A stretch of 14,225 nucleotides of DNA. It comes from a virus. Taxonomy: Duplodnaviria; Heunggongvirae; Uroviricota; Caudoviricetes. The notes under the pieces were generated by a model. It was not told the origin of the DNA and searched no databases. It worked only from the letters and a program-made list of their open reading frames with translations. How positions within the stretch are numbered: position 1 is the stretch's first letter; every line of letters starts with the position of its first letter. The translations under genes were made by a program, and so were the position numbers. The stretch lies in the IMG/VR virus record IMGVR_UViG_2778261499_000007; one strand, given 5' to 3'. This document shows positions 1-14,225 of this stretch, one piece after another.

Positions 1-77
1 CCCCTCAGAGTGGATAGCTGCCAGTGTGGCGTAATTCAGGCCGCTATAGTGCTTTCCGTCATCCCAGCCAACCGCTA
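1..77. repeat. Terminal direct repeat, left copy (identical to 14149-14225)
   Basis: Base-by-base comparison: position 1 aligns with 14149 and position 77 with 14225; position 78 onward is unique. Confidence 0.9.
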
Positions 78-156
78 CACCTTCCATCTGTGAGAGCTCT
101 TTGTGCAGCTTATCCATCATGCGCTTGTCTATGGTGCAATGGACTTTCGGACTCAT
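1..156 (-). CDS. Hypothetical protein, N-terminal part (MSPKVHCTIDKRMMDKLHKELSQMEGVAVGWDDGKHYSGLNYATLAAIHSEG...); continues at 14148->13846 if the unit is circular
   Basis: ATG at 156-154 overlaps the TGA stop of the upstream gene (ATGA, 153-156), suggesting translational coupling. The frame stays open to position 1, and the residues encoded by 1-77 are the same as those encoded by 14149-14225. Confidence 0.5.
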   Translation of the reverse strand, partial: MSPKVHCTIDKRMMDKLHKELSQMEGVAVGWDDGKHYSGLNYATLAAIHSEG

Positions 157-956
157 TTGTTGATCTCCGTGATGTCATCGAGCAACATGTTGGCCTTATC
201 GATCATCGTTTCGTGGAACTCATTCGACACAACAGACTTATCACCTGCGGCAATCTTTCCAGCAGCCTCTCCCTGTGCATATTCCCCGCGATGCTTAGCC
301 CTGGTGGATTTCGTAGCAGCGTTGCCAGCGTTGCTACCCTCTTTAGCACTGTTAACAGCACCCTTTTGCTGTGTTTTGTTCACCTTCTTACTGTTAGTGA
401 AAACTCCGGCATTTTCGACCATCTTCACCTTGAAGGTGCGGAATTCTTCAAAAGTGCAATCAATAGTGATGCAGTCGCCAGAGGAAGAGCTACGCTTAAC
501 TTCACATTTCGTCATGATGAAGTTCTCAAGAAGTCCGGCATCTTCACTAACCAGGCTAACCAGCTGGCGCTTGTCTCTCATTTCCATAAGTGCCTGAACA
601 GCGGCAGCAGGGCGCATAGATTCACGGGGATTATCTGGATCAGTGTTCCGGTCGATGTAGTTCTCTTTCCGGATGATATGAGGGGAAGAGGTGATAATAC
701 CCGTAAAGCTGACAGATTTATCTTTAATGACGGCATGGTCTGACATGGTGGTGCCATCCTCGACCGCATAGCTCGATTTCTCGACAGGGAACGAATAGCT
801 GACATCAGAGATTGAGTCAAAGAAGATAGCCACGTTATCGGTATAGTTGAAGCCATCCATTATATTTTTGTTTTGTGAATATCCCCCACACATAACAGTG
901 AATGCAGGAGATCTCGACTCAGCTTGTTTTGCAGCTGTCAGAGCATCACTAGCCAT
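153..956 (-). CDS. Hypothetical protein, about 267 aa, Lys/Ala/Gly/Ser/Asn-rich C-terminal half; possibly virion-associated (function unknown)
   Basis: ORF-track ORF 153..1010 begins at a TTG; an internal ATG at 956-954 is preceded by GGAGG with about 10-nt spacing, so 956 is the likelier start. Protein-like composition; same strand as the capsid genes. Confidence 0.5.
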   Translation of the reverse strand: MASDALTAAKQAESRSPAFTVMCGGYSQNKNIMDGFNYTDNVAIFFDSISDVSYSFPVEKSSYAVEDGTTMSDHAVIKDKSVSFTGIITSSPHIIRKENYIDRNTDPDNPRESMRPAAAVQALMEMRDKRQLVSLVSEDAGLLENFIMTKCEVKRSSSSGDCITIDCTFEEFRTFKVKMVENAGVFTNSKKVNKTQQKGAVNSAKEGSNAGNAATKSTRAKHRGEYAQGEAAGKIAAGDKSVVSNEFHETMIDKANMLLDDITEINK

Positions 957-1150
957 ATTAAACATGCCTCCAAATTGGTCCACTTCATGGATTTGGCTAA
1001 ACTCGTGCAAGTAGCACTCATCCCGAGGGTGTTAAAGCCAAACCTGCAAAAGATGCAGGCAAAATAGAACTTATCGTTGCCCTGCTTAAAATCTGCAGAA
1101 AATACAGGGCAGTTATTCGTTAGAATCGCTTATAGCTCTTCCCGAGAGCG

Positions 1151-1402
1151 TTATTTTGCAAAACGATTATGGGCATTCAGGGCTTTTTTGCGGTCCTGGG
1201 CTTGTTTGCGTGCAATAAAATGTTCGAAAGTCTCGGCCCAGGTGCATTTATTATATTCACGGTATTTATGCATAGCCTGGCGGCTAACGTCATAGCAGGC
1301 GGCAAATGTGGAGATACGCAGGAATTCCGGCAGATCCTCGTCATCGATATGGATAATATCAAAAGGCACGTCATCACGGTCGCCGTATAAAACAATTTTC
1401 AT
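1151..1402 (-). CDS. Small DNA-binding protein (helix-turn-helix-like segment ISTFAACYDVSRQAMHKY), about 83 aa
   Basis: ORF-track ORF 1151..1411 begins at GTG; the ATG at 1402-1400 is preceded by GAGGTG with 6-nt spacing. The overlapping plus-strand ORFs look like shadows. Confidence 0.4.
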   Translation of the reverse strand: MKIVLYGDRDDVPFDIIHIDDEDLPEFLRISTFAACYDVSRQAMHKYREYNKCTWAETFEHFIARKQAQDRKKALNAHNRFAK

Positions 1403-1436
1403 AAAAGACACCTCAAAAACTTAAGACGGGGATTAT

Positions 1437-1543: not shown

Positions 1544-2578
1544 TTATTTAGCCTTGGCAGCGGCGGCGGTGTTTTTAACACTCACTTTAACCACAACTTC
1601 AGGCATCATGTTCATGAAAGCATAAGAGGATTCAACGAAGATTTCGCGTTTGCCTCTGGACTCTTCCATATACATGAAAGCTTCACGTGCAGCGCCGTTT
1701 GCCAGCTTCAGGTTGCGAGCGCAAGGGCCGAAAAATTGAGTATAAACGCCCACCATATCGCCTAACGCATGCGGCTGGAACTGTGGGACTAGATAAGCAG
1801 TATTCTCTGGCAGACTATCCATTTGCACCACACGCAGGGCTAAGCCCGGAATGCGGAAGGTCGGGAAGCCCGGCAGAATATCCTCAGGGAACATCAGACC
1901 TTTATCGGTAATATTCTGATTGCCGAACAACAGCACTTTACGGAGCAGTTCATCAGTCTGAATTGCAGCAAAGAGCTCAGCACGGCAGAACAGGGTGAAA
2001 CCACGCAGAGCGCGAACGACACCACGCTGTTTAACCTTGCTCAGTGCAACCAGGTCCTGCAGCTGTTTAAGGATATCTTGAGCTAGATCCACTTCTGAAG
2101 TGGTTTGCTGTGCGCCCAGCAGTTCGCACACATTCAGTTCTTTACCCTTGGTGAGGATAATTTTGTTCTCAAAGAGAGCAAGCTGGCGTGCTTCTTCATG
2201 GGTCTGGCGTAAGCCTTCGCCCAGTTGAATAACACGACGAGCGGTTACAGACTCTAAATTCTCTTCGGAATCTTTGCCAGGAACGCGGATACCCTGCCAG
2301 TCAGAAGGATAAATAGCACTTGATGCGGCAGTGAACGCCATATCACCCGTGCCCGTTTCACGCTCATCTGCGGTAATGGTCGCCATCTGTTCACCGTAGC
2401 GCGGATACTGACCGAAAGCGGTTTGTTTCACCTGCCGAACTTTGTCATATTCAAATTTGAAGGTATTGCACAGAGCAGTAGTGTTGAAGATATCCATTGC
2501 TGAAATAATCTGATTATCCAGCGGGATGTCTTTAATCAGACCACACAGATCGCGAACTTCGAATTCTTTCTTAGCCAT
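1544..2578 (-). CDS. Major capsid protein, lambda gpE-like family (HK97-fold), about 344 aa
   Basis: Size and position match lambda E (341 aa), immediately downstream of a 111-aa D-like gene. C-terminal segment KREIFVESSYAFMNMMPEVVVKVSV resembles the lambda gpE C-terminus as recalled. ATG at 2578 is preceded by AGGAGG with 6-nt spacing; the track start at 2584 is a TTG. Confidence 0.65.
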   Translation of the reverse strand: MAKKEFEVRDLCGLIKDIPLDNQIISAMDIFNTTALCNTFKFEYDKVRQVKQTAFGQYPRYGEQMATITADERETGTGDMAFTAASSAIYPSDWQGIRVPGKDSEENLESVTARRVIQLGEGLRQTHEEARQLALFENKIILTKGKELNVCELLGAQQTTSEVDLAQDILKQLQDLVALSKVKQRGVVRALRGFTLFCRAELFAAIQTDELLRKVLLFGNQNITDKGLMFPEDILPGFPTFRIPGLALRVVQMDSLPENTAYLVPQFQPHALGDMVGVYTQFFGPCARNLKLANGAAREAFMYMEESRGKREIFVESSYAFMNMMPEVVVKVSVKNTAAAAKAK

Positions 2579-2589
2579 TTCCAACCTCC

Positions 2590-2925
2590 TTATTGTGCAA
2601 CACGCAAATCGCCATTGCTGGCAGCAATAACAGCGGCTAAGCCGTCTTTATCCACGTAGGCCGGATTGATATAACAGCCTTTGTTGGCAACAACGATAAA
2701 AGCATCACCAACCTCAGCACGTTCTACAACCAGCAGCGGAGTTTTATCGGTGTGCGTTTCTTTAACGAAGGTCTCAACCTCGCCAGCCTCAGTCACCACA
2801 ACAACAGTGCCAGCCGGAATCTCAGCTTTAACTTTGTTTTTAATTTCAACGTCGCGAATACTAAATTGCTCATCTGCGGCGTATGAAATGATGTGTCCGC
2901 GTGTGCGGATAGTCATATCTCTCAT
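2590..2925 (-). CDS. Head decoration protein (lambda gpD-like / DUF2190-like), 111 aa
   Basis: 111 aa, beta-rich with Val/Ala/Gly runs, directly upstream of the E-like capsid gene (stop at 2590-2592, capsid RBS 6 nt later). AGGTGA RBS before the ATG at 2925. Confidence 0.55.
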   Translation of the reverse strand: MRDMTIRTRGHIISYAADEQFSIRDVEIKNKVKAEIPAGTVVVVTEAGEVETFVKETHTDKTPLLVVERAEVGDAFIVVANKGCYINPAYVDKDGLAAVIAASNGDLRVAQ

Positions 2926-3255
2926 TTGATCACCTGCGATTTAAATTAACTCCCCTCAAAGAGTTCCGGTATAACCTCTCAAACCGCGACAGGCTCGGGC
3001 CGAAAAGTTATGCCGGAAATCTAAAGGGGGATTGATATAAGGAGAGGGAGATAGCCCCGCACCGTAGCCAAGCGGGGGCTATTCCACATGGGGAAACCGA
3101 CAACAGTCGGATGATAGTTCACAGTATGGGTTACGGTTACTAGAGAGCACTATCACGAAAGGCACTCCCCCGAATCAGTTCAGGCTGCGGTCACATCAGC
3201 GGGGAAATACCTTTCGGGATAGCTACCCACACAGAAAACCCGCAAAAGAAAACTG

Positions 3256-3264
3256 TGTGGATAA
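3256..3264. promoter_or_regulatory. Perfect DnaA-box 9-mer (TGTGGATAA)
   Basis: Exact consensus match within the 870-bp ORF-free leader upstream of the capsid operon. Confidence 0.25.
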
Positions 3265-3408
3265 CTAGCCCAATAGGAGAATTAATCGACCACTCAACGA
3301 TGATCAGGGTAGTGTTATTTATAGGGCGGCACCGCTACCTGGTCGCCTTTACTTTGGAGGAAAATATGGCAAATCAAGATCTTCTCAAATGATATTGATT
3401 CCATACTA

Positions 3409-3428
3409 TACTGTATATTATATCAGTA
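3409..3428. promoter_or_regulatory. LexA/SOS-box-like site (taCTGTatattataTCAGta)
   Basis: CTGT-N8-TCAG with an AT-only spacer; matches the E. coli SOS-box consensus CTGT-(AT)4-ACAG except the first base of the right half-site. Confidence 0.35.
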
Positions 3429-3775
3429 TTTACTCACATTGTCAACACCTTGATTATATAAATTCTAATAATTAGCGTAGTAACGGTATTTTCAGACCTC
3501 TATCAATCCCATCAATACGTCACCCCCACCCTTTAGATGCATACATCCGACCTACTTTGTAGGCTTGGCGTACTGCCAAGGTCGCAGCTATGCGACTCCT
3601 ATCTATCACCACTTTATAAAGCTTGATAGATATCTTTTGATCAATATCAATGTTTTCCGGGTATTTACCCGGCTATAGTTCGAATCAAGGAAGGGGAGCA
3701 TTGATAGAGACACCCAAAGGGGTGACTGAAAGTCACCTGGCATAGCCAGTGAAAGCACCCAACCGAACAAACAAA

Positions 3776-3801: not shown

Positions 3802-3924
3802 ATGGGTATCAAGAACAGTGCCAGCGCATGGCAAAAGGCCAGGTTTCATCACCCACACATTGTTAAGGCAATTGAGGTGGTTGGAGTTTTAGCCCTGATG
3901 TTAGCTCTGTGTGTGGAGGTGTGA
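3802..3924 (+). CDS. Small peptide, 40 aa, with hydrophobic C-terminal segment (MGIKNSASAWQKARFHHPHIVKAIEVVGVLALMLALCVEV)
   Basis: Below the ORF-track size cutoff; translated by hand. AGGTGA RBS with 5-nt spacing; predicted C-terminal transmembrane segment. Confidence 0.3.
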   Translation: MGIKNSASAWQKARFHHPHIVKAIEVVGVLALMLALCVEV

Positions 3925-4025: not shown

Positions 4026-4286
4026 ATGACGGGGGCTAAAGATATCAGGAGACTGAGGGAAGAGCTGATAGCTGAAATTAAAGCTAAGGCAAAGCAAATG
4101 GAGATAGCCGCACAAATGGATGTAGCGGAACAGATGTACAAGATGGTTGAGGAGGGAACGCCACGACAGGTTATCGCTAAAACCTTCGGTGTGGGGATCG
4201 CCACCGTGCACAGAAGGCTGAAAGCCTATGCCGACTACCACAATATCGAGAGAAAGGAGGATGGGAGATTTAAGAAGAATAAATAG
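4026..4286 (+). CDS. Small HTH DNA-binding protein (coiled-coil N-terminus, C-terminal HTH GTPRQVIAKTFGVGIATVHRRLK), 86 aa
   Basis: ORF track; GAGGAG RBS; clear helix-turn-helix pattern; the overlapping minus-strand ORFs are low-complexity shadows. Confidence 0.55.
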   Translation: MTGAKDIRRLREELIAEIKAKAKQMEIAAQMDVAEQMYKMVEEGTPRQVIAKTFGVGIATVHRRLKAYADYHNIERKEDGRFKKNK

Positions 4287-4296
4287 TAGGAACAGG

Positions 4297-4336
4297 CCCG
4301 AAGGGCTTAGCTTTAGCTAAGGTCCTATCAGGACTC
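4297..4336. repeat. Right arm of the 40-bp inverted repeat (partner 1437-1476); hairpin-forming
   Basis: CCCGAAGGGCTTAGCTTTAGCTAAGGTCCT... is the reverse complement of 1437-1476 with about 4 mismatches; lies between the HTH gene stop and the next gene. Confidence 0.7.
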
Positions 4337-4366
4337 CCACACAGTCCAACAGGTTATTAACTAAAT

Positions 4367-4392: not shown

Positions 4393-5103
4393 ATGTTTAA
4401 AGGTCTTGTTGTTACGCTATTGGCTTGCATTGTATTTGGTCCATGGGTGTTAGTAATTGCTTTACCTATATTGCTGATCATGAGCTTAGGGAATGATATT
4501 AAAAAGCTGCATGCACAATATAAGGAGCATCCTGGAGCAGTCATAACAAGTCTGGTTATAGTCGCGGGGCTTATTGGCTGGGTCTACTTCTCTCTTCCCA
4601 CAGGAAATACAACTGCAAATGTAGAAGAGGCGAACGCACAGCATGAAGAAGTGGTTAACGTCGCCGACCTTACATGGGAGGACAGGGTAAAAGCATATAA
4701 ATATATTTATGGTGTGCTAGATTGCGATCTCTCTAAAGATATAGGATGCACAGATAAATACCAGATTCACGCCTGGCTGTGGAATCATGCAGAAAAAGGT
4801 GCTTGCAACCAGATTAAAGTGGCGGTTAACAGTGGGGCACCTACTGGGAAAAATAAAGATGTTCTGACGGTATGGTGCAAGGATGTAAAAGGCAATGATC
4901 GTTGGCTACAGATGCGCCACATGGACGGTGTAAGCATAGAAACTACACGAACGGCTCGATGGTATAACGGTGAACTCGTTCACGAAGCATGGCAGAATAA
5001 CGCCTGGATCACTGAGGGAACACTCCTGAATGTTGATATGGAAGCATTGAAGATGCTTAATGAGATGTACGGTGAAGCCGTAGAAACCTCTCCGATGAAA
5101 TAA
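4393..5103 (+). CDS. Membrane protein, 236 aa: N-terminal transmembrane helices and a Cys-containing C-terminal domain; function unknown
   Basis: ORF track; two long hydrophobic segments in the first 70 aa; several Cys in the C-terminal domain; followed by a strong terminator. Confidence 0.55.
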   Translation: MFKGLVVTLLACIVFGPWVLVIALPILLIMSLGNDIKKLHAQYKEHPGAVITSLVIVAGLIGWVYFSLPTGNTTANVEEANAQHEEVVNVADLTWEDRVKAYKYIYGVLDCDLSKDIGCTDKYQIHAWLWNHAEKGACNQIKVAVNSGAPTGKNKDVLTVWCKDVKGNDRWLQMRHMDGVSIETTRTARWYNGELVHEAWQNNAWITEGTLLNVDMEALKMLNEMYGEAVETSPMK

Positions 5104-5250: not shown

Positions 5251-6486
5251 AATCCGTTTTATGCCACAACCGCCCGGTTGACAGAGTAAGAGAGAGGGTG
5301 TAACCCTTTTTCGTAATACTAATAAAATCAATAGCTTAGCTCAATTGGCCTTTTCTCTGTTTTTGTCAAATTTAACATACCCTAAAAAACTGCAAAATCT
5401 GGCTGCAAGATTATCTGCAGCTGGATTTCTTACACCTCAATTTGTGGTATCACCCTGACTAGTTTGTGCATAAAATGAACAGTTTTTAACATTTCCTCTT
5501 CACCTGGTAACCACACAAAAAGCTAAAAACGAGGCACAGATAATCTTAGAGGCCTGTTTTCTTGTTATCACTCTGGAAACGTCGTAGAAGTGATTTTGAT
5601 GAAAGATGACCTACCCTATTACACCCCCATTTTTTGTTATCACAATTGCATCCTGTGCGGTGTATGGCTGTGTGCTGAAAGCGGTCTTGGGTGTGGGTGT
5701 CAGAAATATCCATTAGCGGTATTAATACCCGTCAGATGTTCGTCTGAGGTGCCAGGCAGGCGCTCCCCCACCTCCCTTTTTTCTTCTAACAATTCTCAAA
5801 TATCACACCACTGCCGACCACGTTACTACTCTGTTAATTCTTAAGCTTTGCTGTATGTTGTGCACATTATTTATTCAGGTGCGTGTACGTAAATTCTGGG
5901 CCTCCTTATCATGATTTTTAAATCAGATTTTGTAGTTCGGTTTCTTAGTGTAGATAAGATCTATTATGTTAAATGCAATTTTCCCAACCCTTCAAATCAA
6001 TGACTTACATGTAAGCATGCACTAACACCCCACACAGCACATTAGACGTATAGATGGCTATATCCCACATTTTTGATTGTTTTGTAGTCATTCCCCTGAT
6101 CATTTAACCAGTATAGTTTGTTCTTTGCAGACCACAAAATCGGAATTTACATCTGATTAACATAATCTGTTAGCATGATCACTATTACCCACACAACAAT
6201 AACCCCATGCAAGACTCTTCAGGCAATTTATCGGCGTGTTGGTGTGAACAGTCTTTCATGTTCTTTATGTTTTCATTGTCCTGTGTGAGGGAAGGATGGA
6301 CTGCCCCAGGGGCCACACTTATGATGCCCGGTCAACATAGCTATTGATAAAATCAACGGGTGTTGATCTGCATATTTCCCACACATGAGAGGAAATCAGA
6401 GCAAAGAGAGAGGAGAGAGGTTTGCTAGTCAAAATAGGTCAATTGACGGCTAATACAGAGTAAAAAATCAGATGCAATCACTCCCC

Positions 6487-6669
6487 ACCTGTTGGGATTT
6501 CCCGCACCTGTATAAGAATACAGTCATACTTTCCCGTTATACGGTCATACACATGATGGAATAACCTGTTGGAATTTCCTACAGGTTTAACCATACACAG
6601 GAGCTAACCTGTTGGAATTTCCTACTACTACCTGTCGGTATTTCCCACAGGTACCTGTTGGAATTTCCC
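6487..6669. repeat. Iteron array (5 copies of ACCTGTTGGAATTTCCY at 6487, 6564, 6607, 6630, 6653), candidate replication origin
   Basis: Near-identical 17-mers; the last three are spaced 23 bp apart; ACCTGT/ACAGGT inverted half-sites; followed by an AT-rich tract (6670-6710) and, 1.3 kb downstream, Rep-like genes. Confidence 0.7.
6508..6523. promoter_or_regulatory. Canonical SOS-box pattern CTGT-N8-ACAG (CTGTATAAGAATACAG) inside the iteron region
   Basis: Exact CTGT and ACAG half-sites with an 8-nt A/T-rich spacer. May partly reflect the iteron ACCTGT/ACAGGT half-sites. Confidence 0.35.
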
Positions 6670-6797
6670 ACACTAATAGATAAAGAGAATAGATCAATAA
6701 AAAGAACTCCCCCTATAATCCCCCAACAAGGGGGGATGGGGAGGGATCAGAGAGTGGGGAAGGTTTTCTAAGGGAAAAGCTTAACCCACAAATGAAA

Positions 6798-6826: not shown

Positions 6827-7231
6827 AATCTGTGTGTGGGGTGACAATGTATTCCATACATGACACGTCACCCAATTGTGTGTGGGGTGCTTACAGCACT
6901 TAAGCCTCTGGCTTAACCCTTCGGGCCTCTGTGTGGGAAGCGTAGTGCGATAGCACGTAGCTTTATAATGTGGAGTCCGGATAAGAGACTTCTGTTTCCA
7001 ATCCGGACCGTTTAAGCGAGGGATTCCGCTCGCCCGTGTATGCACACACGTAATAGGACGCTCAGAAATCGATTTTAAGGCCCAAAACGGGGCCTACAGC
7101 AACCTAAACCATACTCCATAGTGCAATTGCATTGCCTGATGCTTAAATCGCGTTGTAGGGCATCTCATGAGGTTTGAGTTTAACACCCTCCAAAGTTTTA
7201 ACAAAAAGTGCTCTCCCTCCATTGTGGGCCA

Positions 7232-7261: not shown

Positions 7262-7551
7262 TGATTCTGGTTTTGACACGGTAGGGGCCATTAATAATGT
7301 TTACCCCTTTGCTGTGGACTTGCTTGCACCTATAGCACACCTAAATGATAATAATTCTCATTGACAATTGGTTGACAATATGATAAGATTATAAATAGGG
7401 GGAGAAACAGATCCGGAGGTCAATGTGGAAATTACTGATGCAATAGCGATCATCAACCTGGCTGTACTGTGGTGCGGTGTTGCCTACATAGCCGGAGTAA
7501 CTGCAATCGACAATCTCGAAGAAAAAATGATAGATAAATACAAAAAGATTG

Positions 7552-7580
7552 TTGACAATTTGACGAATGTCTGATAAAAT
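7552..7580 (+). promoter_or_regulatory. Sigma70-like promoter (TTGACA-N17-TAAAAT) about 125 nt upstream of the 7706 gene
   Basis: Consensus -35 and near-consensus -10 at optimal spacing, oriented toward the replication gene block. Confidence 0.45.
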
Positions 7581-7705
7581 ATAAAGCATAGGGTAATTCT
7601 CATCATAGTGAATTTCCTTAAACAAAAATGCGGGGGCTTGTCTTAAGTTCCCGTTTCTTTTTAACCGTATATCGCACAGGCGGTGAGCTGACAGGAGATT
7701 GAATC

Positions 7706-7915: not shown

Positions 7916-7939
7916 TAAATAATCTTGGAGGATCATATT

Positions 7940-8326
7940 ATGGCAAATAACGATGAAAATTTTACTCCCTTTTTTAAACGTTTCATCAAATACACTTTTA
8001 AAAATCCGATTGCAAAAACTGCAACCAATAAAGAAAGATTTCACTTAAATGTGTTGGAGGTAACAATTTATGGTGAAATGGTAAGTTATTCTTTTAAGGA
8101 GGGTGAAGAAATAATTATCTCAGAGCTCTCGACGCAGACATTAGCAGACGATTATGATGTTACAGAGAAAACAGTAAGGTCGGCTATCAAAACATTAGAG
8201 GCTGCAGGTCTGATAAACGTTAAACGAGAACAGGGCAAATCGAATATCTACGAATTGCTAATTACCCCTGATCAGCTTGGCAAGATGTGCGATGAGCAGG
8301 GTATTAGAGAATATTTTATATATTAA
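7940..8326 (+). CDS. Rep-like winged-helix protein, short paralog (about 128 aa); replication-initiator-type HTH
   Basis: Segment ISELSTQTLADDYDVTEKTVRSAIKTLEAAGLINVKREQGKSNIYELL fits the winged-helix pattern of phage/plasmid replication initiators. GGAGG RBS before the ATG at 7940 (track start 7925 is a TTG). Paralogous to the next gene. Confidence 0.5.
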   Translation: MANNDENFTPFFKRFIKYTFKNPIAKTATNKERFHLNVLEVTIYGEMVSYSFKEGEEIIISELSTQTLADDYDVTEKTVRSAIKTLEAAGLINVKREQGKSNIYELLITPDQLGKMCDEQGIREYFIY

Positions 8327-8337
8327 TGGGGGGAACT

Positions 8338-9258
8338 ATGGCAGGAAATAAACTGGGGGCACCTTTTACCCCCTCTTTCGATTTCTTTATTCAGTATGAT
8401 TTTGATAAACCAGTAGCAACAACAATTTCTAATAAAAAGACTGGAACAGTTAAAGAGCGCTTCTATTTAACAGACTTTGAAATGTTGATTTATGGAAAAA
8501 TGGTGGGATTTCATTTTAACGGTGAGGGAATTTATATTTCAGAGCAAAAACTGGCAACTCAACTCAGAAAGGATCGCGGGAAAATAGTAAGCGCTATTAA
8601 ATCTCTGGAAAATGCCGGGCTTATTTCTAAAGATAGCCGGAAAGGCATGTCTAATAATTACAAATTGCTGAAAACCCCTGATCAATTGTTGGATATGTGC
8701 ATTGAGAAGGGCGTAAATATTCCAGAAGGCATCTTAGAGACTTTCGGAAAGACTGCCGCTAAAGTAGAACAGCCTCAGGAAGCCCCAAAACAAGCCACAC
8801 AGCAAGCTAAAAAGGCTAAAGTAGTGCAATTGCCTACCCAAGACACTAAAGCGCCTCAAATTAACGCTGTTAGTGACAAGCCACGCCGGGGCCGTCCTGT
8901 GAAAGATGTCACCGATGGAGGCTGGATCGTCCTGGGTGAGAGTGAGGCTAAAGGCATAATGCGATCACTGTGGGAAAGCAAATACAAAGATTTAAACAAA
9001 CGTCGCCCGATCCTTTTGTCAAAGATTCAGGAGGATTTTTACACCGCAGAAGAGGTAAGCCAACATAAAGGGAAAAGAGAGGGTGAAATCTGGAAACCGG
9101 AAGAATACTGGCATTTAACCAGACCTGTGTTTATTTTTGCAAATAAGCTTATTGGGATGGGATTTGAAATATTGTTGGATAAAACCTGCGGAGATTATCC
9201 CGAAATATTGTGGAGAAATGTTAGAAAAAATAAAAAAGGCATTTTAGAGTTTAAATAA
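8338..9258 (+). CDS. Rep-like replication initiator, long paralog (about 306 aa) with a C-terminal extension
   Basis: N-terminal 120 aa parallels the preceding gene (MA.N...FTP.F...; ...SAIKSLENAGLISKDSRKGMSNNYKLL). The previous stop overlaps an upstream ATG at 8326 (TAATG); 8338 is preceded by a G-rich SD. Iterons lie upstream. Confidence 0.5.
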   Translation: MAGNKLGAPFTPSFDFFIQYDFDKPVATTISNKKTGTVKERFYLTDFEMLIYGKMVGFHFNGEGIYISEQKLATQLRKDRGKIVSAIKSLENAGLISKDSRKGMSNNYKLLKTPDQLLDMCIEKGVNIPEGILETFGKTAAKVEQPQEAPKQATQQAKKAKVVQLPTQDTKAPQINAVSDKPRRGRPVKDVTDGGWIVLGESEAKGIMRSLWESKYKDLNKRRPILLSKIQEDFYTAEEVSQHKGKREGEIWKPEEYWHLTRPVFIFANKLIGMGFEILLDKTCGDYPEILWRNVRKNKKGILEFK

Positions 9259-9275
9259 AAACACTGATAATCTTA

Positions 9276-9289
9276 TTTTTTTTTTTTTT
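9276..9289. repeat. Homopolymeric T tract (14 T)
   Basis: Seen directly in the sequence between the Rep gene stop and the 9307 ORF. Confidence 0.8.
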
Positions 9290-9306
9290 GTTTAAGGAAA
9301 TTTAAA

Positions 9307-9453
9307 ATGTATGGCGATTTTGATTATTACCTGGAAAAGGAAAAATATTTTGAAGATGAACTATCACAACATTTTTCATATTGGGAAGAATATTGTGGTT
9401 GGTTAGCTGAAGATCCAGCAGATGAAGAAAATGATTCTGACATCCCTTATTAA
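9307..9453 (+). CDS. Small, strongly acidic, aromatic-rich protein, 48 aa (MYGDFDYYLEKEKYFEDELSQHFSYWEEYCGWLAEDPADEENDSDIPY)
   Basis: Below the ORF-track cutoff; translated by hand. AAGGAAA RBS about 7 nt upstream; composition dominated by Asp/Glu/Tyr/Trp. Confidence 0.35.
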   Translation: MYGDFDYYLEKEKYFEDELSQHFSYWEEYCGWLAEDPADEENDSDIPY

Positions 9454-9551
9454 TTAATATCCCCTGTTATCCCCAAACAAACTAAATAAATAAACTAAGC
9501 ACTAGAACTAGATTGATTGCCCTGATCTTTTAAACGTTCGGAGAATTAATC

Positions 9552-10040
9552 ATGTTCAAATCTGATCTTTCTGATTCCCAATTTGAAAAACTGGTAGCAC
9601 TGCAGAAATATCTCCCCAGTGATGATCAACCAACACGACAGGCTAAACACTTATTAGTCGAGGGCTTTACCCCTGAATTCGTGGCGGAATATACAGGCGT
9701 TAAACTTGAGAAAGTCCAAAAACTATATAATGAGTCCTGGAATCCACGGTGTCGAGTTCCCCTCAGTGTCTACAACGAAATAGATAGAGATAGAAATGTC
9801 TTCGAAGATCGCCGCCGCAAATCTCTTTTAATGTGGAATTGTGGGATGAATATTGAAGAGATAGCAAAAGAATTAAAAGTAACCTGCTTTCATATCTGGG
9901 GCTTGTTGAGTGAAATCCTACCACGTAAGGAGCTTAATCAACGTTTGCCTAAGCCCGGTAGTCGTGCTTATCGCGAATTTATATTCATCTACCGCCGCCA
10001 TAGCAATAAAGTCCGGAAAGCAATGGCCCAGAAAGCCTAA
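9552..10040 (+). CDS. Hypothetical protein, 162 aa, with two HTH-like segments (possible DNA-binding or regulatory protein)
   Basis: ORF track; GGAGA RBS; basic C-terminus; HTH-like stretches FTPEFVAEYTGVKLEKVQKLY and MNIEEIAKELKVTCFHIWGLL. Confidence 0.45.
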   Translation: MFKSDLSDSQFEKLVALQKYLPSDDQPTRQAKHLLVEGFTPEFVAEYTGVKLEKVQKLYNESWNPRCRVPLSVYNEIDRDRNVFEDRRRKSLLMWNCGMNIEEIAKELKVTCFHIWGLLSEILPRKELNQRLPKPGSRAYREFIFIYRRHSNKVRKAMAQKA

Positions 10041-10113
10041 GTTTTATCTCTTCGATTTATTTATTTTCGACTCACTTTAACCCCTTCCGGGGCTCTAATT
10101 TAAGGAATTCCAA

Positions 10114-10557
10114 ATGTCTCAAATCGCTAAATTACTATCCCAGGTTATCAAAGCTTTCGACGCTGAAGATTCAAAAGTTCGCCAGGATCTTTTAGATGGC
10201 AAGTTTACCAACACCCTGGCATTTACCCGTGACAAAGAGCACTTCTTAAAACACAGACACCACGCTTTTGCTGAATGCAAGTCCGCTAATGGTGATGTTT
10301 TCTATGTCGATTTGGTGGTTATGGCATGTAGATTGTGGATGATTCAGGACCTTATGCGCCAACACGGTGATGATCCTCTTATCAGCATGTGGAACAGCGC
10401 CCAGGATGGCTTTGTGATTGCTGCCTTATCCAAATCAATGATTGAGGCAGAAGGGGCAAGCCTTCAGAACATGGCAGATCTCTTTGAAATAAGCGTAGGA
10501 ATGATGCAGACCATGCTCCAAGCTGTCAAACCTCTCAAACTGGTTAATCTTGATTAA
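10114..10557 (+). CDS. Hypothetical protein, 147 aa
   Basis: ORF track; AAGGAA RBS with 7-nt spacing; no recognisable motif. Confidence 0.45.
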   Translation: MSQIAKLLSQVIKAFDAEDSKVRQDLLDGKFTNTLAFTRDKEHFLKHRHHAFAECKSANGDVFYVDLVVMACRLWMIQDLMRQHGDDPLISMWNSAQDGFVIAALSKSMIEAEGASLQNMADLFEISVGMMQTMLQAVKPLKLVNLD

Positions 10558-10618
10558 GCTATTGATAAATAAGCACTCCCCATTTTTTTGGGGGGTGCAT
10601 CAATGAGAGGATATGCCT

Positions 10619-11002
10619 ATGAATATTGAAGAAATGATAGTTGAATTCGAAGATGGTGATTTCCTGGAAGATGGGGAGTTTAAATACTCCCGTTTTAAAC
10701 AGGCGTTATTTAGCAGTGAGGATAAACCACACGTTAGTGATCTTAACGACGATGATTTATGTCGTTGGGTATGCACCCGCTTATATGAGGATGGAAAATA
10801 TACAGGCCAAAACTTTCCAAATCTCTATTTCAAAGCACAAACATTTGAGGAAGGGCAAAGAGTGAAAAACCTGGTAGATAAAATGCTTTCAGCCGGATAT
10901 TTGCATAAAGAATTATTAAATCCTAAAGCTGAAAGCAAGCGCCATTATATTTTTGTGTGGTCTGTGGGGGATAAGTGCCCACTGAAGCGTAAAGGCAAAT
11001 GA
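10619..11002 (+). CDS. Acidic hypothetical protein, about 127 aa; possible tail assembly chaperone by position upstream of the tape-measure gene
   Basis: GAGAGGA RBS is correctly spaced for the ATG at 10619 (track start 10613 is too close to the SD). Acidic composition and tight packing against the next two genes. Confidence 0.4.
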   Translation: MNIEEMIVEFEDGDFLEDGEFKYSRFKQALFSSEDKPHVSDLNDDDLCRWVCTRLYEDGKYTGQNFPNLYFKAQTFEEGQRVKNLVDKMLSAGYLHKELLNPKAESKRHYIFVWSVGDKCPLKRKGK

Positions 11003-11003
11003 T

Positions 11004-11189
11004 ATGAATACCTACGAAAAGATTTATCAAAAATTAAAAAGTGATAACAATGCTCCCGTCATCAAGGGCGGGGCTTCTTCCTCTGGTGACCTCTCAATCG
11101 AAGAGCTTGCGGAGAAATATAATATTGATAAAGAGGCCCTGAAAAGGGCTATTTCATTATCAAAATCTTTAAGACAAGGCGAGGTATAA
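11004..11189 (+). CDS. Small hypothetical protein, 61 aa, immediately upstream of the tape-measure gene
   Basis: ORF track; ATG 1 nt after the previous stop; its stop lies 1 nt before the tape-measure ATG. Confidence 0.35.
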   Translation: MNTYEKIYQKLKSDNNAPVIKGGASSSGDLSIEELAEKYNIDKEALKRAISLSKSLRQGEV

Positions 11190-11190
11190 A

Positions 11191-13293
11191 ATGGCAATGA
11201 AGGAAGTAGCCAAGCTAACAAACGTTATTTACTGGGATTCTGATAAATCCAGCTGGCGAAAAGAAGTTAAACGGCTTGAGGATTATAAAAAATCCTGGAA
11301 GAAAGCTACCGACGATATAGCTAAAGCGGATTTTAAATCTAATCAGGCTGTGCTCAGAACACAAAGAACACGCGCTAAGGTGGAAGAGCAGATCGCCAGA
11401 GCACAGAAGAAACAACGTGCTCAGGCTGTCAGCCGTCTGACCGGGGGCAATAATCCGGAGCTCTCCTCTATGCGCAAGTTCTATCAGCAGCAAGCCAGAG
11501 AGGCCGCCAGACAACAAAAACTGTTAGATCGTAGTGTTGGAGATGTTCAGCACAGAAAAGCACGTGTAGGGGCCAACAGTGCACGAATCAGCAGCATGTT
11601 TGATGGCTCCCTGGTTGCTCAGTTCCAATCCAGAATTCAGAGAGTTAATGCTGATTATGCTAAAGGGGCTATTAACCTGCAGACCTATAATCAGAAAATG
11701 GCCCGACTCAGATCTGAAATGAAGATGGCAACAGCAGAGGCCGGAAAATTTCAGAGCAGACTAGACAAAGCTGCGGTAGCAGGATCAAAGCTGCATGACA
11801 ACCTGGGCAAACTCAACTCCACACTAGGCAAGATAGCTATTGGCCTTACTGCCGCTGGCTGGGGTGTTCAGCGTGCTGTTAGTGGTGCTATGGGTAGCCT
11901 TGCAGATCGCAACAGTGCGTATTTCAGCTTAATGGCCCAGAACAAGGATGATAAAGAAAAAACTGATCAGCAGATGGCCTACGTCAAAAGAATCTCTTAT
12001 GACTACGGGATGGATCAGCGTGAGACTGAAGGCGGCTTTATGCGCTTTGCTGCAGCCACACCAAGCATAAAAGAGAAAGATAAGCAGGATCTCTTTGAGG
12101 CTATGGCGATTAAAGGCCGATCAGTGGGTGCTACCGCAGACCAACAGAACAGGGCTATCGTTGCACTAGGACAAATATATAGCAAGGGCGGTCGAGTGTA
12201 TGCGGAAGAGCTTAAGGGCCAACTTTCTGAAGCCCTGGCAGGTTCTCAGGTAGATTTCACTAAGGCCGCTATCGATGCCGGAGTCATCAAGAAAGAGGAA
12301 GAATTTAATAAAGCCCTTGAAGATGGCAAGATCACCATGGACAAGCTTCTTCCTTCTCTGGTGAAAATCTGGGGTGCTGCAAAAGAAACTAAAGCTTTTG
12401 CTGAATCCATGAAACAGCCAGAAGTAGCAATGCAGCGCATGAAAAACAGCTTTAACGAGCTGGCGATTCAGTTTATGGGTGTTGTGGATCCTGCAGATGG
12501 CGTTATTAGCTTATCTGAATCTCTAATCTCCATCTTCGAAGACCTCACCACTGATATGGACGGCAGCGGGAGCGCGGCAAAACAGTTCGGTGAGGCAGTC
12601 GGGGCTGCCATGCGGGAGATCATGTATTGGGTAGGCTTCGCTAAGGGATATATCGAGATTAAGGCTAAAGAGTTCGGCATGACCAGTGAGGAAGTCGGAG
12701 GATGGATCGGCAAGCTGGTTGTTGCAATCGCAGGTCTGAAGATCATCGGCACACTTCTTTCTCCGTTTACCGGACTGATTTCACTTGTCACACAGCTGAT
12801 AGCCTTGTTAGGTAAAATCCCTGGTATGAGCAAGCTTCTGGCTTCTGCCTCAGGTGGAACGGCAACAGGAGCAGCGGTCATCAGTGCAGGATCTAACGCT
12901 GAAAGAAGTTTCATTGATGGCAAGACGCAGGAAATGAGTAAGGAGAACTCAAAACAGGGTGCTTTGTTTGAGCTGGGAAGATTTGTTAGCAATGCTGGCG
13001 CACTATTCACACCTGGCGGTGATACTGGTCCTTTGTTCGATCAGGTCAGAGGCTGGTTTAATAAAGGGCCAACATTGACAGTAGACACTGGCATCAGACC
13101 AACACCAACGGGTGGCATAGCTATCCAGAATGGTGGATATCAACCAGTCCAAGTAAATGTAGCCCCACAAGGTGAGATTTCCGGCAAATGGGAGATAACC
13201 ATCGATGAGGGGGGAATTGCCAGGGTAATTCAGAAGGAAGTCAGCGATCAGTTGGATTGGAAAGCCACGCAGGAATCTAACCAGCTTTTCTAA
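11191..13293 (+). CDS. Tail tape measure protein-like, 700 aa
   Basis: Long coiled-coil N-terminal region; segment ADQQNRAIVALGQIYSKGGRVYAEELKGQLSEALAGSQVDF matches the conserved tape-measure domain pattern (SKG...EEL..QL.E.L.G); long hydrophobic helices at about residues 505-560; Gly-rich C-terminus. Confidence 0.7.
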   Translation: MAMKEVAKLTNVIYWDSDKSSWRKEVKRLEDYKKSWKKATDDIAKADFKSNQAVLRTQRTRAKVEEQIARAQKKQRAQAVSRLTGGNNPELSSMRKFYQQQAREAARQQKLLDRSVGDVQHRKARVGANSARISSMFDGSLVAQFQSRIQRVNADYAKGAINLQTYNQKMARLRSEMKMATAEAGKFQSRLDKAAVAGSKLHDNLGKLNSTLGKIAIGLTAAGWGVQRAVSGAMGSLADRNSAYFSLMAQNKDDKEKTDQQMAYVKRISYDYGMDQRETEGGFMRFAAATPSIKEKDKQDLFEAMAIKGRSVGATADQQNRAIVALGQIYSKGGRVYAEELKGQLSEALAGSQVDFTKAAIDAGVIKKEEEFNKALEDGKITMDKLLPSLVKIWGAAKETKAFAESMKQPEVAMQRMKNSFNELAIQFMGVVDPADGVISLSESLISIFEDLTTDMDGSGSAAKQFGEAVGAAMREIMYWVGFAKGYIEIKAKEFGMTSEEVGGWIGKLVVAIAGLKIIGTLLSPFTGLISLVTQLIALLGKIPGMSKLLASASGGTATGAAVISAGSNAERSFIDGKTQEMSKENSKQGALFELGRFVSNAGALFTPGGDTGPLFDQVRGWFNKGPTLTVDTGIRPTPTGGIAIQNGGYQPVQVNVAPQGEISGKWEITIDEGGIARVIQKEVSDQLDWKATQESNQLF

Positions 13294-13845: not shown

Positions 13846-14225
13846 TCAGCCTCTACCTACATTTGACCAATACTTGATTGCACCGATCAAATCATCATAG
13901 TGGCGCATTGCATCATTGAAGCCTTTATAGCTTGCCCATTGTGGTGAAACCTTGTTATTGCTGAATTGCCCACTAATCAGGATAGTCTCCAAAATGTCGG
14001 CATATCGCTTACCAATACGCTTTCTGACGGCCTCAGAGCTCCCACCCTTTACGATTGCATTAATCAGGGCTTTTGTGTGTCTCAGGCTCTCATAGAGCAT
14101 TGCAGCGTGGGCAGATTCCATAAAGGAGCGCTTAGGCAGATCACCCCACCCCTCAGAGTGGATAGCTGCCAGTGTGGCGTAATTCAGGCCGCTATAGTGC
14201 TTTCCGTCATCCCAGCCAACCGCTA
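13846..14225 (-). CDS. Hypothetical protein, C-terminal part (...MESAHAAMLYESLRHTKALINAIVKGGSSEAVRKRIGKRYADILETILISGQFSNNKVSPQWASYKGFNDAMRHYDDLIGAIKYWSNVGRG); same gene as 1-156 if circular (about 152 aa total)
   Basis: The frame is open from the window end down to the TGA at 13846-13848; the upstream portion is supplied in frame by 156->1 through the 77-bp junction. Confidence 0.5.
   Translation of the reverse strand, partial: AVGWDDGKHYSGLNYATLAAIHSEGWGDLPKRSFMESAHAAMLYESLRHTKALINAIVKGGSSEAVRKRIGKRYADILETILISGQFSNNKVSPQWASYKGFNDAMRHYDDLIGAIKYWSNVGRG
14149..14225. repeat. Terminal direct repeat, right copy (identical to 1-77)
   Basis: Same 77-mer as the window start; consistent with a circular contig written with overlap, or a direct terminal repeat. 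Confidence 0.9.

Follow-up and report, generated by a model that had tools for sequence, protein, structure and literature searches.

Among described phage satellites, those closest in mode of life to the element considered here are the phage-inducible chromosomal islands that form capsids (cf-PICIs), the element of Vibrio cholerae that resembles a phage-inducible chromosomal island (PLE), the plasmid pDolos and P4. The element itself is a circular DNA contained in IMG/VR virus record IMGVR_UViG_2778261499_000007, a stretch of 14,225 nt that is referred to below, at its full length, as the window. We lean towards reading this circle as an iteron-replicating, non-mobilizable Escherichia coli plasmid that is a satellite of the rV5-like (Vequintavirus) lytic myoviruses, an assignment made in silico. 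That it interacts specifically in some way with rV5-like phages, whether as a satellite or as a defence, is quite likely.

The cf-PICIs share with the circle a small size (~14 kb here), a gene of their own for the major capsid protein (MCP) and the use of a helper for the remaining functions. However, they are integrated islands, whereas the window carries genes for replication proteins (Rep) and an iteron array typical of a plasmid, no integrase was found in it, and all places at which the family occurs in complete genomes are on plasmids (9/9). The cf-PICIs also possess a full capsid module; here, in contrast, the finds are limited to an MCP, one neck protein and what may be a decoration protein, and no portal, protease, scaffold or small terminase was detected. 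In one source (PMC12772148), cf-PICIs are described as being without tail genes and as having a temperate helper of ~40 kb, whereas the circle encodes a tape measure and a tube initiator and its presumed helper is a virulent myovirus of ~137 kb.

The pairing of a small element with a large virulent myovirus is also seen in PLE, a satellite of the lytic V. cholerae myovirus ICP1 (~18 kb and ~126 kb, respectively), which has no sequence relationship to the plasmid. PLE is reported to be integrated and to remodel the coat protein of its helper rather than encoding a capsid protein (PMC10945586). The circle shares with pDolos (PMC12282955), the sole plasmid so far shown to be a phage satellite, an autonomous plasmid state and a proposed packaging by a helper phage. 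pDolos replicates by the rolling-circle mode, has a filamentous inovirus as helper and contains no capsid or tail genes, in contrast to the present iteron plasmid, which appears tied to a tailed lytic phage. P4 can likewise be a plasmid and depends on a myovirus helper. Its genome is 11.6 kb in size and its capsid is small. P4 has the capsid-size and decoration factors Sid and Psu, a primase-helicase and an integrase, and it relies on the capsid protein of its helper; none of these was found here. A full phage genome, as expected of a phage-plasmid, is not present either, the circle being 14 kb in length with only four to five morphogenesis genes. The plasmid lacks the defining features of cf-PICIs and phage-plasmids and is without the characteristic genes of P4; it resembles these systems in its proposed mode of action, not in membership.

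In its form, the window is an ordinary case of the circular contigs that de Bruijn assemblers write with a k-mer overlap, and that receive a 'DTR' (direct terminal repeat) flag of the CheckV type. Such contigs show the same exactly identical ends, of a common k length and with real junction sequence, and the window differs from them in no respect. The initial annotation had claimed that positions 1-77 and 14149-14225 are identical, and this is borne out: the match is exact in 77/77 nt (the chance of such a terminal match is 4^-77) and ends there, with the adjoining bases diverging (CACCTTCC... versus ...ATCACCCCA). The same annotation had described a minus-strand open reading frame (ORF) that starts at 156, continues through position 1 and resumes in frame at 14148 down to 13846, and all of these coordinates proved correct. 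As the cause it had proposed two alternatives, a circular molecule whose linear record repeats an overlap, and a direct terminal repeat. The first of these is supported: the junction is contiguous in 15 related assemblies, in each of which a 1,048-nt junction-spanning probe aligned unbroken. The second is not supported, the break points being different. Four closed circular E. coli plasmids (L001-L004, 13.3-13.7 kb) have the 77-mer in a single copy per unit, and other assemblies of the circle open at no fewer than six different places. For instance, the ends of a SPAdes-style NODE contig (L021) overlap by 55 nt within the tape-measure gene, those of two contigs from Logan (L013 and L015) overlap by 30 nt, and those of four others (L014, L016, L017 and L022) simply abut.

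With the junction contiguous, the 77-mer single-copy and the break points permuted and accompanied by other overlaps, the 77 nt are best read as an assembler overlap; 77 is a usual final k-mer size of SPAdes-type assemblers. Circularity was judged from assembled sequences. Overall, the window is almost certainly a complete circular DNA of 14,148 bp, linearised with a 77-nt assembler overlap, in which the two edge ORFs are one neck gene of 152 aa. The first copy of the overlap (1..77) is real sequence present once per molecule, as in the closed plasmids, while the second (14149..14225) is redundant, and trimming it leaves the true unit.

A genuine direct terminal repeat at both ends of a linear virion genome would take the same appearance in a contig, with exact repeats at both ends, and the presumed helper group does use repeats of this kind, 459 bp in length (PMC7471380). 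For the 77 nt, however, this explanation is extremely improbable: they fall within a strongly constrained gene, are single-copy in the four closed plasmids, and are not shared as fixed ends by independent isolates, since the relatives break at six or more other positions and the closed records are circular without duplication. The phage-like terminus motif, moreover, is located ~5.7 kb away, at 5750-5804. If a helper phage ever packages this DNA, the predicted end lies at ~5754/5755 and not at 14148/1.

Hardly any weight is given to a tandem or chromosomal duplication, by which the window would be a slice of a larger array or chromosome. None of the 9 places occupied by the family in 5,426 complete E. 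coli genomes is chromosomal, and the members are single units of 13.2-14.1 kb, apart from one record that does argue for duplication, NZ_CP043822.1 (L005; 39.6 kb, 39,610 bp), with three head-to-tail copies of a family member. As a head-to-tail multimer has the same junction, the one-gene conclusion for the edge ORFs would be unchanged. The first unit of that trimer contains broken (frameshifted) genes; these were read as long-read assembly error, and the record could represent a real multimer or concatemer or a long-read artefact. For the window, the terminal identity amounts to bookkeeping: the record is to be trimmed to 14,148 bp and marked as circular, and its edge fragments annotated as one gene.

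The proposal that the two edge genes are a single gene is supported by closed plasmid records, in which the homologues are annotated as one intact coding sequence of 459 nt (152 aa) in the record interior; in NZ_CP074841.1, the gene crosses that record's own origin. On the minus strand of the circle, the junction ORF comprises codons 1-52 (1..156, read from 156 to 1) followed in frame by codons 53-152 and the stop (13846..14148, read from 14148 to 13846), whereas the linear window displays it only as a 91-aa fragment at 13846..14121. The start codon (ATG, 156-154) shares an ATGA with the TGA stop of the Dit-like ORF upstream (153-1010), a 4-nt overlap that is likewise annotated in closed plasmid records (e.g. 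9689..10492 and 9234..9692 in NZ_AP045055.1). The junction protein matches PHROG 222, 'tail completion or Neck1 protein' (E=2e-28), and is 45-49% identical to a protein of ~153 aa in Vequintavirinae and their relatives, including 45% to bas57_0011 of phage MaxTheCat. In phage contigs the homologues are located in the neck module, where they either lie between a PhiTE-type adaptor and the genes for head closure and the tail terminator or immediately follow a gene of the E217_gp27 type; in the record of phage CB7 the homologue is labelled 'structural protein'.

The structure of the junction protein was modelled on a 99% identical stand-in (P0001), for which AlphaFold with 46 homologues reached a pLDDT of 90.6. 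A comparison of this model with solved structures returned no match; among the predicted viral proteins of BFVD, similarities up to a TM-score of 0.83 were obtained, including a 'putative neck protein' and 'virion morphogenesis proteins'. Sequence similarity, fold similarity and the neck-module position of the phage homologues all agree with membership of PHROG 222. The gene is intact in all 12 plasmid-family members compared (12/12), and its ratio of nonsynonymous to synonymous substitution rates (dN/dS), 0.04, is the lowest of all genes. It is a real, constrained gene for a tail-completion or neck protein, whose placement in a virion is putative.

The junction gene is the last of five on the minus strand, which are transcribed in the order 111-aa ORF, MCP, 86-aa ORF, Dit-like gene, junction gene. 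The Dit-like protein, a homologue of the tail tube initiator (153..1010, minus strand), matches Pfam Dit_like (PF21821) with E=2.5e-25 and has a dN/dS of 0.09; it measures 285 aa as the longest ORF and 267 aa in annotated records, and is 51% identical to the 'tail tube initiator' of the rV5-like phage MaxTheCat. The MCP of 346 aa (1544..2584, minus strand) was assigned through phrog_29 (E=5.5e-21; dN/dS 0.11) and is ~24% identical to rV5-like MCPs (MaxTheCat 24%), while its homologue in the divergent metagenomic relative L009 matches Pfam Phage_cap_E. The tail tape measure protein of 700 aa (11191..13293, plus strand; phrog_5255, E=2e-153; TIGR02675) is encoded convergently with the junction gene and is ~25% identical to its rV5-like counterparts (MaxTheCat 25%). 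Altogether, four morphogenesis proteins are recognisable, and all of them have their closest phage relatives in Vequintavirinae.

Less certain is the 111-aa ORF directly upstream of the MCP gene (2590..2925, minus strand), which by synteny occupies the position of the phage decoration gene. BLASTP against the phage decoration protein gave no significant similarity and a single-sequence structure model was unusable (pLDDT 36), so the designation as a decoration protein refers to position only. The 86-aa ORF (1151..1411, minus strand) is conserved in L009 at 36% identity. On the plus strand, four conserved ORFs of 162, 147, 129 and 61 aa (9552..11189) precede the tape-measure gene, and the last two lie at the position of the phage tape-measure chaperones. 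Profile searches with the ORFs of the window yielded no terminase, portal, protease, sheath, tube, baseplate (hub), integrase, relaxase or known defence protein, and left five ORFs unassigned, which received no PADLOC or NCBIfam assignment either. The set of virion and packaging genes is incomplete, as in a satellite.

Compared with the morphogenesis module of Vequintavirinae (rV5, phi92 and PhiTE-like phages), the plasmid has homologues of the same MCP, tape measure protein, tube initiator and 153-aa neck-module protein, and the local order is partly kept in the pairs of (decoration)-MCP and (chaperone-like ORFs)-tape measure. However, it holds only a small subset of the module, at 24-51% identity, and its two gene blocks converge, whereas those of the phages are co-linear. 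The fragmentary morphogenesis set, the unusual convergent layout and the long ORF-free stretches would all suit a decaying remnant of a larger phage or phage-plasmid, with genes and motifs devoid of present function. This explanation is nevertheless improbable given that the phage-like genes are all intact in the family and evolve under purifying selection (dN/dS 0.04-0.2). Furthermore, the same set in the same order (110 aa, MCP, 78 aa, Dit-like and Neck1-like, with a convergent tape measure) is found in L009, a lineage whose MCP is 51% identical, and the non-coding leader and terminus mimic described below are more conserved than synonymous sites. To judge from these patterns of conservation, the phage-like genes are a maintained set and not debris.

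The plasmid and the phages are also linked by non-coding DNA. Three short motifs (m1, m2 and m3) are common to the plasmid and to one ORF-free region of Vequintavirus genomes, and occur in no other phage group. The most informative location is a candidate packaging-start mimic at 5740..5804 on the plus strand, composed of the octamer TGCCA/GGC (5750-5757; the slash marks the cut), a 26-nt spacer counted from the cut (5755-5780) and the 24-nt motif m3 (5781-5804). The left genome terminus of the Vequintavirus Gotham has been defined experimentally (PMC7471380). In the Gotham record the terminal repeat is marked at 1-459, and m3 maps to 27-50. The phage terminus reads ...GGAGTGCTGCCA/GGCGGACGGAATGGGAATACTTCTCA-TTCTTATAATAATTCTCAAATATC and its plasmid counterpart ...CTGAGGTGCCA/GGCAGGCGCTCCCCCACCTCCCTTTT-TTCTTCTAACAATTCTCAAATATC, with a cut-to-m3 spacer of 26 nt in both. 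Written as a composite, the site is TGCCAGGC N23 TTCTTNTAANAATTCTCAAATATC; the cut lies inside the octamer, so 23 nt follow the latter.

The plasmid has a single copy of the octamer TGCCAGGC; by our own calculation, the probability of an octamer falling at one fixed spacing is ~1.5e-5, though this one was noticed post hoc. Throughout 15 family members, the ~65 nt at 5740-5804 show no variation, unlike the flanks on either side, and 14 of the 15 members checked have m3 at 100% identity. Significant matches to m3 were confined to ~110 rV5-like records, in a single copy each and at 95-96% identity, and the match exceeded those of all 200 shuffles. A sequence mimic of the Gotham left terminus is present in the plasmid, and its recognition by a terminase is putative; we regard 5740-5804 as a candidate packaging-start mimic of rV5-like phages.

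The second conserved non-coding element is a putative leader RNA of the capsid operon, an ORF-free and strongly structured stretch of 485 nt (2926..3410, minus strand). Pointing into it is a sigma-70 promoter-like site of perfect consensus (12/12, with TG; 3417..3445, minus strand), and the operon of the 111-aa ORF and the MCP gene lies downstream. The leader is 95-99% conserved where synonymous sites differ by 0.1-0.3, and no invariant run in the family is longer than its 80 nt at 3174-3253. Its predicted folding is far stronger than that of shuffled sequences (z=-5.85), and L009 exhibits the same layout with a leader of ~700 nt (z=-9.29). Scanned against Rfam, the window and the ORF-free region of the phage showed no hit above noise, and the leader had no match. 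Covariation amounted to one compensatory pair among 138 predicted pairs, with almost no statistical power. The leader is possibly a regulatory RNA, large and structured.

Strong promoter-like sites of related sequence (TTGACAAT ... TGATAAnAT) were noted at three places, 3406-3447, 7361-7389 and 7552-7591. One of them precedes the capsid leader and the other two precede the block of small ORFs and Rep genes. The shared promoter type suggests, at the level of sequence, common control by one repressor or operator.

The circle belongs to a family of plasmids. Its sequence fits an iteron-type theta plasmid, with winged-helix Rep proteins and an array of direct repeats. Five iterons of 21-23 nt with a ACCTGTTGGAATTTCC core are located at 6485..6671, the presumed replication origin, and two winged-helix Rep-like genes, of 133 aa (7925-8326) and 310 aa (8326-9258), are found at 7925..9258 on the plus strand (HTH_36 and a replication-initiator PHROG). 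No part of the family varies more than the region of Rep genes and iterons, in which the two vary jointly, a pattern that an exchange of replicon modules would be expected to produce. The neighbouring Rep-like genes are paralogous, sharing repeats of 68 nt that are 71% identical (8234-8301 and 8644-8711), and the 133-aa copy is absent from many family members. Closed circular plasmids of E. coli related to the window were identified by Megablast, with sizes of 13.2-13.7 kb and identities of 91-95%. The family was found in seven of 5,426 complete E. coli genomes, always as a plasmid and never in the chromosome, and the related plasmids in PLSDB were all typed as non-mobilizable. The isolates come from human, bovine, pig and chicken sources in several countries. 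Unit size is narrow, at 13.2-14.1 kb in more than 20 members, and draft and metagenome contigs measure 13.4-14.3 kb.

Taking the circle as a satellite, the plasmid would maintain itself through Rep and the iterons. On infection by an rV5-like phage, the helper terminase would recognise the terminus mimic (~5750-5804) and package plasmid DNA from ~5755. The plasmid MCP may form small capsids sized for 14 kb, and the plasmid neck, tape-measure and tube-initiator proteins would complete the virions together with the portal, sheath, tube and baseplate of the helper, whose yield would probably fall. Such a mechanism would explain the spread of a non-mobilizable plasmid, the uniform unit size and the conservation of the phage-like genes. 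Whether this would be the first plasmid-borne satellite of tailed, strictly lytic phages, forming both capsid and tail parts as a hybrid and controlling its capsid operon through a leader RNA (~480-700 nt) of a class outside Rfam, we judge to be evenly balanced.

Several points weigh against the satellite reading. It is wholly in silico. The match at the packaging-start site is short, 24 nt plus 8 nt, with the octamer noticed post hoc, and nothing was found in the plasmid that corresponds to the right-hand boundary of the terminal repeat of the phage. The proteins share just 24-51% identity with those of known Vequintavirinae, so the true helper may be an unsampled phage. We know of no characterised capsid-forming satellite that has a capsid protein without a portal, protease or scaffold of its own. 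Searches of the IMG/VR viral contigs by MCP-based scans, an exact leader probe and m3 recovered no family member. Finally, these features would equally suit a plasmid serving in defence or as a decoy, without ever being packaged.

The last of these points describes the main rival, which we consider unlikely: an interference plasmid whose divergent capsid, tape-measure, tube-initiator and neck proteins would poison helper assembly and whose terminus mimic would titrate or misdirect the terminase, with no productive packaging. Its links to the phages are identical to those cited for a satellite, the absence of family members from viral contig collections favours it, and interference with tail assembly is a documented defence strategy (PMC11364771). 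However, no known defence family matches the plasmid proteins, and defence leaves both the spread of a non-mobilizable plasmid and its uniform unit size unexplained. Known satellites also interfere with their helpers, so interference of this kind is compatible with the satellite reading, which we continue to prefer.

Among other database scans, one with the MCP detected nothing in GTDB representative genomes. A single IMG/VR contig has m3 (L030, 14.8 kb), and it was rejected as a satellite, being a fragment of an rV5-like phage.

The remaining shared motifs have more scattered distributions. Motif m1, a hairpin-containing element of 52 nt (3704..3755, plus strand), matches unannotated intergenic DNA in 63 rV5-like records at 88-90% identity; within the plasmid family it is limited to about half of the members, and Gotham lacks it. 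The stem of its hairpin, GGTGACT-GAA-AGTCACC, has a compensatory difference between plasmid and phage. Motif m2, a triple hairpin of 45 nt, is present in inverted copies at 1437-1481 and 4292-4336 that flank the capsid block, with a partial third copy at 6911-6928, and phage APECc02 has a related copy immediately beyond its genome terminus. It may be a terminator or a protein-binding site. An invertible segment between the two full copies was considered and rejected, as the orientation is the same in all members examined; the only recombinase-like feature nearby is an 86-aa HTH_7 protein without a catalytic domain.

In phages APECc02 and naam, the ORF-free region (L026 and L027 2154-3830) spans 1.7-2.5 kb, is unannotated in most records and includes the genome terminus. 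It contains arrays of short direct repeats, e.g. TATGCGTAAAC(A/T)GT and ATGCAAACGAATGGCATGGC, and is probably a control region for packaging and/or replication. Records of the MG0656xx series labelled 'Campylobacter phage' (~135-143 kb) match rV5-like phages of E. coli gene by gene and motif by motif, and by this resemblance look like mislabelled or contaminant Vequintavirus genomes.

The rest of the plasmid backbone, with a GC content of 44%, is arranged on the plus strand in the order HTH_7 protein, membrane protein, two small ORFs behind strong promoters, two Rep-like genes, four ORFs and the tape-measure gene. The HTH_7 protein (resolvase-type helix-turn-helix; 4026..4286) is a DNA-binding protein, and the predicted membrane protein of 236 aa (4393..5103) is variable across the family. 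No tRNAs were detected. The same ORF-free gaps are left by the Prokaryotic Genome Annotation Pipeline (PGAP) in closed plasmid records, and these stretches, for which an alternative genetic code had been considered, are explained by the iterons, promoters, leader and terminus mimic. Many occurrences of the motif CCCACACA and its complement are found in the non-coding DNA, e.g. at 3236-3244, 3851-3858, 4336-4343, 6030-6037, 6190-6197 and 6379-6386. One family member, contig L010 (NTNY01000053.1, 30,105 bp), carries an inserted resistance transposon at 13450-21041, downstream of the junction gene; the insertion comprises two genes for aminoglycoside phosphotransferases (strA/strB-like), an insertion sequence (IS) transposase and TetR-type regulators. 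The family can, by this example, acquire resistance cargo, which would also break the size constraint.

Sequences of the family are already public as unnamed plasmids with generically annotated genes. A full-text search of the literature, covering open-access papers and bioRxiv only, found no description of the plasmid family or of any Vequintavirus satellite. The terminal overlap is correctly described and ordinary, while the molecule closed by it makes a good candidate for a type of phage satellite not yet described. If true, this would provide a concrete, testable satellite of tailed lytic phages, with closed plasmids from human and livestock isolates, publicly available rV5-like phages of the BASEL collection and a defined site of 65 nt. 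The rV5-like phages are used in phage therapy and biocontrol of E. coli. A resident plasmid that exploits or blocks them, and that is able to gain resistance genes as in the strA/strB variant, would therefore be of practical relevance.

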